NCBI RefSeq assembly: GCF_057098645.1
Contig: NZ_CM169472.1
Strand: one strand, 5' to 3'
DNA: 64,000 nt
The position numbers and the translations under genes were made by a program. Numbering within the stretch: the stretch's first letter is position 1; each line of letters starts with the position of its first letter. Below the pieces are notes generated by a model. It did not search any database. It worked only from the letters and a program-made list of their open reading frames with translations, and was not told the origin of the DNA. Shown in pieces: positions 1,776 to 61,556 of the stretch.

Positions 1776-3227
1776 TTATCGCCGCCAGCGTCTGAGCAGG
1801 CGGCTTCGCATCCCGGTATCAAAGCGCCAGATATGATCGAAAATGCGCATGATGCCGGGTTTGCCGTGTGCCGACATCGCCACGGCATGAAAGCGATGCT
1901 GATGTACCCGCTGCAGCTCTTTCACTTTACTCGTCACGTCGTCAGGCAACCGCTGGGCGATAAAATCAGAAATCACCACCGCATCGGCATCAAACCATTC
2001 CCTGCTTTGCAAGCGTTCCATAATGGCGCGAAAACAACTGGCAAGATCGGTGCCGCCACGAAACTGCTGGCTTAAAAAACGGATTGCTTGTTCGATGCCT
2101 TGTGGGCCTGAAAGCTCATAACGGACGATCTCGGTGGAAAATAGCATAATATAACAGCGCCGGTTTTCAGCGAGAGCAATGCGCATCAAAGCCAGGCAGA
2201 ACGCTTTCGCACACTGTTCATTAAAGCCGCCCATTGAGCCGGAAGTATCCACGCAGACAATAAACGGTCCGCGCGGCTGTTCGTCGTAATCTTTATGCAC
2301 CACCGGGCGTTCGATCACTTTTTCACGCCACGACTCACCGTGCAGGCGATAGGTGAGCAACTGTTTTTCCACCAGCCGACGGTAAAACTCATACTCCAGT
2401 TCCGTTATCCCTAGTGTCGCCAGTTCTGGCGGCAGAAGACGTAAAATATCATCGCTTTGTTGCAGACCATCAACCTGCTCAGGAACCGTCGCCGGTTCGC
2501 GCACCATGGTGCGGAAGGTTTCCATCTGCGCATCGTTACGCGGTATTGATTTGGCTTCCCGAGAACGCCCCAGCTGCTCTGCCAGGCGTTTCAGTTCCGG
2601 CTGTTCGTTAAGAAATTCACCGTATTTCACAATCAACTGATAGTCGCCACGTTTAAGCTGACTGGCGCTCATATCCCACAGACGACCAGCTGCGGTATTG
2701 TTATCTGCGAGAATCGGTTCAAGTTGTCCGCTCAGCGTCATGCGTTCCTGAACTTCACTCAACAGTTGTTCGCGTTCTTCTTCTAATAGCTGTTGATTTA
2801 ACGTCGTTGCTTGCACGATCAGACTTAAACGCCAGCGCTGGAGAAAAAGCGTGTGTAACGCTGAAGTGATCGTGCTGTTAGTATCAACCAACTGCCGGGC
2901 TTGTTCTGCCCATGGGGAATTCAGACGATGCAGTAAGTCCATGATCTGTGGTAGCTGCACAATAAACTGCGGCGTGGAGAGGAGCTGGCTTTGCTGATAG
3001 CACATCACCTCTTCGGTGAGTTCCGGCGGGACTCGGGCATCTTTCAGCCGACTGCGCAGCGCCTCACGCCAGCGGGGAACATCATCAGTGATTGCCGCCT
3101 TCAGTCGTGGGAATTTTTCAAAGAAGACCGCCAGCTGCGGTGAGGCCAGCAGCGCGATGATCATCTCTTCGATCAATCCCTCTTCGCTGACGGCCAGCAT
3201 CACATTAAGCGTATCCAGCGTTAGCAT
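1776..3227 (-). CDS. viaA: VWA-domain protein ViaA, partner of RavA
   Basis: 483-aa ORF immediately downstream of ravA with a 7-bp overlap. Confidence 0.9.
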
Positions 3228-23593: not shown

Positions 23594-23946
23594 AAGCCCT
23601 CCTTGAGTCACCATTATGTGCATAAGATATCGCTGCTGTAGCCCGCTAATTCGTGAATTTTAGTGGCTGATTCCTGTTTATTTGTGCAAGTGAAGTTGAG
23701 TTGTTCTGGCGGTGGAATGATGCTCGCAAAAATGCAGCGGACAAAGGATGAACTACGAGGAAGGGAACAACATTTATACTGAAATTGAATTTTTTTTCAC
23801 TCACTATTTTCTTTTTAAAAAACAACAATTTCTATTGAAATTATTAAAGCCATCATAAAAATCGGCCAAAAAATATCTTGTGCTATTCGCAAAATCTATG
23901 GTAACTCTTTAGGCATTCCTTCGAACAAGATGCAAGAAAAGACAAA

Positions 23947-24045
23947 ATGACAGCCCTTCTACGAGTGATTAGTCTGGTCGTGATTAGCGTGGTGGTGATT
24001 ATTATCCCACCGTGCGGGGCTGCACTTGGACGAGGAAAGGCTTAG
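23947..24045 (+). CDS. ilvL: ilv operon leader peptide
   Basis: 32-aa peptide MTALLRVISLVVISVVVIIIPPCGAALGRGKA, dense in Leu/Val/Ile codons. Confidence 0.95.
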   Translation: MTALLRVISLVVISVVVIIIPPCGAALGRGKA

Positions 24046-59222: not shown

Positions 59223-60878
59223 TTAATCAGATTTAATCTGCGCGCGTGGTGGATATTTTTTCAGGATCTCCATATACGCGTGCATTTCGGTCTGTAGCGG
59301 TACACCCATCGGAATATGGCGCACGCCGATAGAGTCGCTCTCCTGCGGATCGGTGTACAGGTTAAACACCGACGATCCGGCTGTTTGCATTACTGTGCCG
59401 GTGAATCCACCCTGATATCCGCTCTGGGTATAAGCGTAAGGTTGCTGAATCAGGACGTGATACTTGAATTCATCCATACGCACAGCAGCGAGTTTACCGT
59501 TGAGGAAGTAGTGCTCGGCCTTACGGTTAGACTGACCATTTGTTCCCAGGAAGAAAGATGTCTGGTCCACACCATCGATAAAGGTGGTTTTCGGCACTAA
59601 ATTCGCCACTTTCGCGCCAGGATGCCCTGCCAGATCCAGCGCGGTAGGGAAGAGATCTGCCAGATCGACAATACCGTCAGATTTACGCGGTTGGATCATC
59701 CCTTTCCAGTACACGAAAGTCGGAACGCGAACGCCGCCTTCCCAGGTCGAACCTTTCGCACCACGGAACGGTGTGCGTCCGTGCGGCGGTACTTCGGCTT
59801 CCGGTCCGTTATCGGAGGTAAAGACAATCAGCGTGTTATCAAGCTGACCGTTTTTTTCCAGTGCTTTATACAGATTAGCGAACACATCGTTCATTTCCAC
59901 CATGCAGTCGCCATACGAGGTGCGTGCCGGAGAGCTACCCGCATATTTGGCGTTCGGGTAGTTATCGAAGTGACAGCCGCGAGTGCCGTAATAGAGGAAG
60001 AAAGGCTTATCACTCTTCGCCATCTTGTCGAGGAACTTAACGCCATATTCCATCCAGCGTTGATCCAGATCTTCCATATATTTCGGCGTAATGTCGGCAA
60101 TGGCCTGTTGTTCGCCGCCGCGCACCGCATGAACGTCATCTTTGCTAAATGGTAATTGCTTGATGTATTCAGAACGGTCCGGACTCAGGGCCACTTCCGG
60201 GTTTACGTGAACGTCGCGCCATTCGGTGTACATATCAGACACCGAGTTAAAGCCACGGAAATCATCAAAGCCAACGTTCTGCGGCTGCGACTCTTTGTTT
60301 TCCCCCATATGCCATTTCCCGATGGCCTGAGTGACGTAGCCCTGATCGTGCAGCAACTGCGGCAGCGTGGTTAACCCTTGCAGCCCGCCCGGTTGCCCAT
60401 ACATTGGCGGCATCAGAATGCCGTGGTGGATGGAGTATTGTCCGGTGAGAATAGTGGCGCGGGTTGGGGAAGAGCTTGGTTGAGAATACGCCGAAGTTAA
60501 AATCAGCCCCTGGCTGGCAACGGCGTCGATATCTGGTGTATGGTTACCCACTGCCACGCCGCCACCGTTAAAACCGACGTCCATCCAGCCCACATCGTCC
60601 AGCAAGAAAACAACCACATTCGGTTTCTTACCGGTTTTTTTCTCAAGTTCTGCCAGCTTCTGCTGGGTTTCTTTATCCTGCGCCGGATGCTGCATTACTG
60701 GCATCATGTTGTCGGCAATAGTGGTCGCCGGTTTAACCAGATACTGGTTTGGGTGATCGTATCCGGCAAAGCCTTTGCGTGCGGTGGCAGTTGACGGGGT
60801 ATCTGCTGCGCTGGCCATGAGAGGAAGAGCGGCGGCGACAGCAACAACAAGACGTTTGGGTGAAAACGAAAATTCCAT
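59223..60878 (-). CDS. aslA: arylsulfatase-like protein
   Basis: 551 aa with signal peptide and sulfatase signature S-S-P-T-R in [15 protein letters not shown]. Confidence 0.92.
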
Positions 60879-61302
60879 GCAAAATGCTCCGGTTTCATGT
60901 CATCAAAATGATGACGTAATTAAGCATTGATAATTGAGATCCCTCTCCCTGACAGGATGATTACATAAATAATAGTGATAAAAATAAATTATTTATTTAT
61001 CCAAGAAATGAATTTAAAAATCAGGAGAGCGTTTTCAATCCTACCTCTGGCACAGTTGATATGTAAGGCAGGTTTATTATATCGCGTTGATTATTGATGC
61101 TGTTTTTAGTTTTAACGGCAATTAATATATGTGTTATTAATTGAATGAATTTTATCATTCATAATAAGTATGTGTAGAATCAAGCTCAGGGTAAATATTC
61201 ACTCAGAAAGTTATTACTCAGGAAGCCAAGAGGATTACAGAATTATCTCATAACAAGTGTTAAGGGATGTTATTTCCCGATTCTCTGTGGCATAATAAAC
61301 GA

Positions 61303-61510
61303 GTAGATGCTCATTCCATCTCTTATGTTCGCCTTAGTGCCTCATAAACTCCGGAATGACGCAGAGCCGTTTACGGTGCTTATCGTCCACTGACAGATGT
61401 CGCTTATGCCTCATCAGACACCATGGACACAACGTTGAGTGAAGCACCCACTTGTTGTCATACAGACCTGTTTTAACGCCTGCTCCGTAATAAGAGCAGG
61501 CGTTTTTTTA
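61303..61510 (+). ncRNA. glmZ: small regulatory RNA GlmZ
   Basis: Sequence from GTAGATGCTCATTCCATCTC to the terminator hairpin GCCTGCTCCGTAATAAGAGCAGGCGTTTTTTT matches GlmZ as I recall it; no ORF; a -10-like CATAAT lies just upstream. Confidence 0.9.
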
Positions 61511-61556
61511 TGTGTCAGGAAGGCCCCGGAGGTGCTTGCCTCCGGGTGAGAAGGAA

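Follow-up and report, generated by a model that had tools for sequence, protein, structure and literature searches.

The aslA–glmZ intergenic region

Within the window analysed here, i.e. a 64 kb stretch of contig NZ_CM169472.1 (RefSeq assembly GCF_057098645.1), the gene encoding the arylsulfatase AslA (551 aa; 59223–60878, minus strand) was taken from the list of open reading frames and from the RefSeq annotation of the corresponding locus in O145 strain RM9872 and in K-12, while the small RNA gene glmZ (61303–61509, plus strand) was identified by a match to Rfam RF00083 (218 bits, E = 1e-57). Since the aslA coding sequence extends to 60878 and the GlmZ match begins at 61303, the interval 60879–61302 represents the complete intergenic region of 424 bp. 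The glmZ gene ends in an intrinsic terminator at 61475–61504 and is followed by hemY on the minus strand. Some E. coli strains harbour an extra gene for a 196-aa hypothetical protein between glmZ and hemY (equivalent to about 61510–61556), which is absent here and in K-12.

The interval is 100% identical to that of O145 strain RM9872 and 97.6% identical to the K-12 spacer, which spans positions 3986008–3986431 of that genome. Of 5426 complete E. coli genomes, 5423 contain it, almost always at full length. No annotated feature lies in the spacer in O145, in DH10B or in the curated MG1655 record. Engineered cassettes have been inserted in it, i.e. it is routinely used as a neutral integration site, and a clinical isolate carries an IS2 copy there (see below); the toleration of these insertions implies that nothing in the interval is essential in the laboratory.

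The initial annotation had singled out the interval as the longest low-GC stretch of the window, flanked by GC-rich coding DNA, and both statements were borne out by measurement. Its GC content is 31.6%, compared with 52.0% for the window, and the flanks have 53–56% GC, the GC content of the aslA coding DNA itself being ordinary. Only 0.1% of all 424-bp windows show a GC content this low, and every one of them overlaps 60879–61302. The top-scoring maximal AT-rich segment of the 64 kb is 60893–61275 (383 bp, 29.8% GC, score 98), ahead of a runner-up at 23766–23948 (183 bp, 26.8% GC, score 60.5); a third AT-rich segment, with 31.4% GC, is located at 611–836. The two AT-rich strings quoted in the initial annotation could be located at 60980–61002 and 61137–61168. 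In its essentials the region is already known, and it is an ordinary AT-rich divergent regulatory spacer. Our additions, i.e. the assignment of the aslA promoter and a conserved palindrome in the predicted aslA leader, are modest and of an ordinary kind.

The glmZ promoter

The glmZ promoter occupies the right-hand edge of the interval (61267–61302, plus strand) and is defined both by conservation and by mutations in K-12 (PMC3045617). It consists of a -35 element ATGTTA (61267–61272), an 18-bp spacer and the extended -10 element TGgCATAAT (61288–61296), with the transcription start at 61303. The -10 hexamer CATAAT (61291–61296) has the A at -11 and the T at -7 expected of such a promoter and precedes the GlmZ start by a distance within the usual 6–8 nt, and the TG of the extended element (61288–61289) is invariant in all ten Escherichia lineages compared, as well as in five other genera. 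The whole promoter sequence was returned as invariant in 10/10 Escherichia lineages by a scan for conserved promoters, and identity to K-12 is unbroken from -67 to +1. In K-12, only the region from -40 to +1 is required for glmZ promoter activity; the DNA upstream of -40 is dispensable, while a deletion to -20 abolishes activity (PMC3045617). The same work showed that the promoter is sigma-70 dependent and is killed by mutations of the -35 and -10 elements, that it is independent of rpoN/sigma-54 and of glrR, and that GlrR leaves a fragment from -424 to +32 unbound (PMC3045617). The right-hand 40–70 bp or so of the interval are therefore the constitutive sigma-70 extended -10 promoter of GlmZ, and the rest of the spacer is addressed in that study only as dispensable for glmZ and unbound by GlrR.

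The initial annotation had proposed a search for both sigma-54 and sigma-70 elements upstream of 61303. The sigma-70 element was found, i.e. the extended -10 promoter identical to that of K-12, and a sigma-54 element is absent: the sequence TGGCAC-N5-TTGCW has 5/11 mismatches at -24/-12 of glmZ, with 3–4 mismatches for the best match anywhere in the interval. The GlrR site TGTC-N10-GACA had no match in the interval with up to one mismatch.

In strain PSS-16, an IS1A-associated deletion has removed the 5' part of aslA and the spacer except for its last 50 bp (equivalent to about 60100–61252 of the window). The retention of these 50 bp is consistent with the sufficiency of the sequence downstream of -40 for glmZ transcription.

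Conservation in Escherichia and a predicted aslA promoter

The spacer was aligned for ten lineages, i.e. O145, K-12, three other E. coli strains, E. albertii, E. whittamii and three further species-level lineages. Between Escherichia species, spacer identity to O145 is 73–81%, compared with 59–72% at the four-fold degenerate sites of aslA. Across six lineages, 60% of the columns are invariant, and stretches that vary freely are interspersed with invariant runs of up to 15 nt. A spacer that is more conserved than four-fold sites and contains long invariant runs points to selection on more than base composition. No closer relatives were found among E. coli genomes with divergent spacers, and the copies recovered by a metagenome scan were all coli-, albertii- or clade-like.

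A scan for promoter-like sites kept in 10/10 Escherichia lineages yielded only two, namely the glmZ promoter on the plus strand and a site on the minus strand, here termed P1 (61038–61067), with a -35 element CTTACA (61067–61062), an 18-bp spacer and a -10 element TAGGAT (61043–61038). The invariant runs ATATGTAAG and TTTCAATCCTACC correspond to its hexamers, and nowhere in the centre of the spacer does the sequence vary more than between the two. The motif (C/T)TTACA-N18-TAnnAT is also found on the aslA strand, 101–159 nt before the ATG, wherever aslA adjoins glmZ in other genera, namely in Pseudocitrobacter (two representatives), Kluyvera (five), MGYG-HGUT-00110 and Superficieibacter, with spacer sequences unrelated to one another. 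It thus occurs in 9/9 representatives and in around 1% of dinucleotide-shuffled sequences, a contrast that is overstated, though very large, given that the motif was defined after the data had been seen. This is a classic promoter footprint, and on the grounds of conservation alone we predict P1, around 160 bp upstream of the ATG, to be the aslA core promoter. Transcription would then start at about 61030–61033, with a predicted leader of around 153 nt. The statement of the initial annotation that the interval must hold divergent aslA and glmZ promoters holds for glmZ by experiment in K-12 (PMC3045617), and the cross-genus footprint speaks for a promoter on the aslA strand.

P1 is weak, with 4/6 matches in each hexamer and an 18-bp spacer, which fits the poor expression of aslA. 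The arylsulfatase AslA of E. coli has been reported as an invasion factor of K1 strains. In the K-12 Term-seq list of Adams et al. (2021), an RNA 3' end on the minus strand maps to 3984899, around 1108 nt into the aslA ORF (equivalent to about 59770), an indication of some transcription of aslA in K-12, with transcripts that end or are processed internally.

Three further elements lie upstream of P1. The conserved block TTGATTATTGATGCTGTTTTTA (61087–61108), which is kept in Escherichia and could also be aligned in Pseudocitrobacter faecalis, would lie at about -57 to -77 relative to the start predicted for aslA and is a candidate activator or UP-type site. A second promoter-like element on the minus strand, with the extended -10 sequence TGAGATAAT (61250–61242), is present in 9/10 Escherichia lineages and stands back to back with the glmZ promoter, in the conserved region from -41 to -67 of glmZ; it is overlapped by another aslA promoter prediction, TTAACA-18-TGTAAT (PMC3946193), which we located at 61263–61234. 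This site may represent a distal or divergent start. The third element is the palindrome TGAATGA-N6-TCATTCA (61142–61161), which overlaps a minus-strand extended -10-like sequence found by the promoter scan, TGATAAAAT (61157–61149); it occurs in some E. coli lineages only and is not conserved in B2 strains or in other Escherichia species.

Other candidates were rejected. Resemblances, noticed by eye, to the consensus sequences of NarL, EvgA, IHF and FNR sites and of ARG boxes amounted to half-sites or had the wrong spacing. An apparently covarying hairpin at 61044–61061 had weak pair counts (81.5% paired; for covariation, 9/500 shuffles; equally good in a slid control) and proved to be the free 18-bp spacer of P1.

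Among E. coli strains, a patch of five substitutions at 61068–61076, just upstream of the predicted -35 element of aslA, changes GGCAGGTTTATT to GGCGGTGATGTT in three aligned strains (702/18, uk_P46212 and CS18F) and has the appearance of a templated or conversion event, not of separate point mutations. Furthermore, the direct repeats ACTCAGAAAG and ACTCAGGAAG, 15 bp apart, are located at 61201–61225; a 15-bp deletion in strain 702/18, probably due to slippage, drops one unit of this repeat.

The predicted aslA leader

Inside the predicted leader lies a nested, imperfect inverted repeat of 107 bp (60933–61039), detected by a repeat finder, with the outer arms ATTGAGATCCCTCTCCCTGA and TCAGGAGAGCGTTTTCAAT (60933–60952 and 61021–61039) and the inner arms TACATAAATAAT and ATTATTTATTTA (60962–60973 and 60988–60999). 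The long hairpin is the minimum free energy fold in 10/10 Escherichia lineages, and its middle stem has three sequences in three clades, with complementarity kept in each. Over the 30 pairs of the alignment, 98.7% of the cells are paired, compared with 40–49% in slid controls. Two pairs show compensatory change, which was matched by 1/500 shuffles; 21 of the 30 pairs never vary, and because most pairs are invariant the evidence for pairing is suggestive, not proof. The fold z-score of the element is -2.7 for the plus strand (60928–61045) and -1.4 for the minus strand, while those of the leader are modest (-1.2 to -1.6; whole leader, -1.6). One-sided changes, including G·U pairs, amount to around five pair-preserving and three pair-breaking events and favour neither strand.

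The repeat is absent from the spacer of Pseudocitrobacter, which is otherwise homologous by nhmmer (E = 4e-10). Membership in a MITE-, ERIC- or REP-type repeat family was considered and rejected: a 118-bp query comprising the palindrome matched a median of one place per genome and a maximum of two, the latter where an IS splits the copy. In the clinical isolate 648, IS2 has inserted in the apex of the inverted repeat (equivalent to about 60989), which in this isolate therefore tolerates disruption.

Closer to the gene, the ribosome-binding region of aslA, GGAGCAUU (60883–60890, minus strand), contains the Shine–Dalgarno (SD) sequence GGAG (60890–60887), 8 nt before the AUG, and is recognized from sequence and conservation. 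It belongs to the run 60882–60896 that is invariant in six Escherichia lineages, and CTCC is the sole aslA-proximal motif common across genera. The palindrome GTCATCA-AAA-TGATGAC (60899–60915) lies 20–37 nt upstream of the AUG, and in the predicted fold it is enclosed by a 7-bp helix, AAUGCUU (60928–60922) with GAGCAUU, that would cover the SD sequence. In the palindrome, 89.8% of the cells are paired and one compensatory pair occurs in E. albertii, which is not significant (70/500 shuffles); Pseudocitrobacter has a hairpin of different sequence at the same position.

It is tempting to speculate that the 107-nt repeat and the helix masking the ribosome-binding site form a so far undescribed cis-regulatory leader of aslA, acting either as a gate on translation or mRNA stability or as a paired DNA element for bridging by H-NS or another regulator. 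If true, such a leader would account for the laboratory silence of aslA in spite of its conservation, but we regard this suggestion as rather unlikely. Similarly, the inverted repeat might act as DNA only, e.g. as a pair of operators around 88 bp apart for a looping regulator, as a cruciform-prone sequence or as a downstream element for H-NS. The near-invariance of both arms, with the 21 unvarying pairs, fits recognition by a protein as well as it fits pairing; the arms flank the downstream side of the promoter, as H-NS downstream elements do, and the outermost ATTGA/TCAAT pairs lie upstream of the predicted start and could therefore not form in the leader RNA. However, the retained complementarity of a middle stem that differs in three clades is less easily reconciled with a role as DNA, the fold of the single-stranded DNA is unexceptional (z = -0.9), and no motif of a known factor was recognized, so that we consider this role doubtful.

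No credible hidden gene or small RNA

The plus-strand fold mentioned above, together with its preservation in ten lineages and its two compensatory pairs, could also be taken as a sign of a separate small RNA with the 107-nt hairpin at its core, and the presence of a 40-aa plus-strand ORF and of a 10-codon upstream ORF as a sign of an unannotated small protein. The initial annotation had seen no credible ORF in the interval, and the conservation of ORFs on both strands agrees with it, as no ORF has start, stop and reading frame all preserved from lineage to lineage. The 40-aa plus-strand ORF and a 45-aa minus-strand ORF are broken in several lineages, and the only persisting ORFs, of 10–13 codons, either lack an SD sequence or vary non-conservatively; among them, the 10-codon upstream ORF is kept in most lineages and lost in one, with non-conservative changes of the peptide. 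A 64-aa ORF on the minus strand (60704–60898) has its AUG inside the hairpin near the SD sequence and runs across the aslA start in a different frame. This AUG is lost in lineage E69, and the ORF is unlikely to be a gene.

As for RNA, a scan with Rfam 15 at E-values up to 1 gave no match within 60879–61302 and only GlmZ at 61303–61509, apart from a snoRNA match inside glmZ at a permissive threshold, which we regard as chance. The interval contains no intrinsic terminator, and the K-12 Term-seq list shows no 3' end in the spacer, the consecutive ends being 3984899 in aslA and 3986582 in glmZ. Moreover, no conserved plus-strand promoter was found upstream of 60933, and, as stated, the one-sided substitutions of the hairpin favour neither strand. 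We therefore consider an unannotated product of the interval highly improbable.

The AT-rich block accompanies aslA in other genera

According to the aslA loci fetched from other genomes, the adjacency of aslA and glmZ is also found in Pseudocitrobacter, in five Kluyvera species, in Superficieibacter and in an Enterobacteriaceae genome. In the five other genera with this adjacency, the spacer measures 303–496 bp and has a GC content of 30–36%, and is essentially unalignable with that of E. coli except for the aslA SD sequence and the extended -10 element of glmZ. In Salmonella enterica subsp. arizonae and Citrobacter sp. wls619, aslA is located downstream of maeB and not beside glmZ, and is nevertheless preceded by 450–610 bp of DNA with 17–40% GC (locus positions around 2390–3000). 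Upstream of aslA, Citrobacter sp. wls619 has the sequence GAGGTAGTATTGAAA, which is near-identical to GAGGTAGGATTGAAA, the -10/start region of E. coli, but here the spacer to a TTTACA measures 15 bp. Since AT-rich DNA accompanies aslA across genera, also where glmZ is not adjacent, the sequence comparison indicates that the AT-rich block is a property of the aslA upstream region and is not shared, glmZ using only the last 40–70 bp or so.

In every genus with aslA beside glmZ, the small RNA gene is preceded by a sigma-70 promoter with an extended -10 element of the TGTGnCATAAT type, and sigma-54 and GlrR elements are absent. The ‘group III’ architecture of glmZ promoters thus extends beyond Escherichia and Klebsiella. 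With regard to the origin of the block, it might represent the edge of an acquired aslBA cassette, the insertion of which displaced the ancestral upstream region of glmZ with its GlrR, IHF and sigma-54 sites and left the sigma-70 promoter behind. None of the ten lineages with aslA beside glmZ (10/10) has a sigma-54 promoter or an array of TGTC-N10-GACA sites, whereas Salmonella and Citrobacter, where aslA stands beside maeB in S. arizonae and one Citrobacter, are reported to retain control of glmZ by sigma-54 and GlrR (PMC3045617). The loss of this control where aslA adjoins glmZ, and its retention where aslA is elsewhere, suggests displacement by the arrival of aslBA. The conservation within Escherichia, which ends at about -67 of glmZ, agrees with a boundary at this site, although the ordinary GC content of the aslA coding DNA does not speak for an acquisition. 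We put this scenario forward tentatively, as possible rather than probable; it concerns origin and is compatible with the function proposed below. The association between aslA adjacency and the loss of sigma-54/GlrR control of glmZ represents a small evolutionary lead.

H-NS and the proposed function of the block

The initial annotation had called the composition of the interval typical of curved, H-NS-bound promoter DNA. Binding by H-NS finds support in the literature: in genomic SELEX in vitro, the K-12 aslA–glmZ spacer was among the divergent spacers binding the RpoD holoenzyme and was marked for H-NS SELEX sites (Shimada et al., PMC3946193). The 383-bp tract with 29.8% GC has the composition of an H-NS target. 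No exact copy of the high-affinity H-NS motif occurs in the interval; six matches with two mismatches were found, which is around the number expected from the AT content. In the accessible literature, we found no report of H-NS occupancy in vivo or of derepression of aslA in an hns mutant. The attribute ‘curved’ found no support: in a wedge model, which is crude and indicative only, the interval ranks at around the 70th percentile of the window for mean curvature and has an unremarkable end-to-end ratio, with a single local peak at about 60883. The interval contains 21 A/T tracts, all of them short.

Considering these data together, we think it likely that, with the glmZ promoter at the right edge, the remaining 360 bp or so constitute the regulatory region of aslA and a target of H-NS. 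According to this proposal, aslA would be driven by the weak, sigma-70-type promoter P1 (CTTACA-18-TAGGAT), embedded in around 380 bp of DNA with 70% A+T that extends both upstream and downstream. The AT-rich stretch upstream of P1 would measure around 200 bp and include a single conserved block (about -57 to -77), and downstream would follow the leader of around 153 nt and 75% A+U, with the long inverted repeat and a hairpin able to pair with the ribosome-binding site. The extreme AT content on both sides of P1 means that H-NS can coat the region or bridge across it, and we infer that H-NS filaments or bridges keep aslA silent in the laboratory until a counter-silencer or activator acts. Meanwhile, the glmZ core promoter at the edge of the block would fire constitutively, and the leader structures might add post-transcriptional control of aslA.

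A simpler reading would be that the AT-richness has no function, i.e. that the spacer is relaxed, mutation-biased non-coding DNA in which only the short core promoters matter. Between genera it is indeed unalignable apart from the promoters and the SD sequence, a k-mer search found nothing in common beyond low-complexity words such as ATAAATAA, insertions and deletions are tolerated, and the upstream DNA is dispensable for glmZ. On the other hand, both length and composition are kept in every genus, also at the second genomic location; within Escherichia, the spacer is better conserved than four-fold sites and contains long runs without variation away from the core promoters; and no segment of the 64 kb is as extreme in AT-richness as this one, which H-NS and RNA polymerase select in SELEX. 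A functionless block thus appears quite unlikely, and we favour regulation of aslA by H-NS. As by-products, the analysis provides a well-supported position for the aslA promoter and assigns the AT-rich block to aslA and not to glmZ, while the conserved leader palindrome offers a lead on why the arylsulfatase of E. coli is cryptic.

Comparison with known regulatory regions

The right-hand edge of the interval corresponds to the K-12 glmZ promoter described by Göpel et al. (2011; PMC3045617): it is the same locus, with the same extended -10 element, a -35 element with 3/6 matches, 18-bp spacing and +1 at the start of the Rfam GlmZ match, and only the strain differs (O145). The small RNA is also homologous to those transcribed from the sigma-54/GlrR/IHF-dependent glmY/glmZ promoters of Yersinia and Salmonella, and the -10 region is in the same place; unlike in these promoters, the spacer here lacks both GG-N10-GC and TGTC-N10-GACA.

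The predicted aslA leader shows no sequence or Rfam relationship with described families of leaders that mask the ribosome-binding site, and its fold z-scores are weak. Nevertheless, it resembles such leader hairpins and 5'-terminal stabilizing stem-loops in that it would start with a long stem-loop and that the SD sequence GGAG is paired with AAUGCUU in the minimum free energy fold.

The regulatory regions of proU and bgl are AT-rich and silenced by H-NS, with elements flanking a weak promoter. Unlike in this type, the crude wedge model gives no support for curvature at aslA, and an exact high-affinity H-NS motif is absent. The likeness consists in the A+T content of around 70% over some 380 bp, spanning the predicted aslA promoter and leader, in the binding of H-NS in SELEX, and in a weak promoter, the hexamers of which deviate from the consensus and are 18 bp apart, in front of a gene that is cryptic and poorly expressed.
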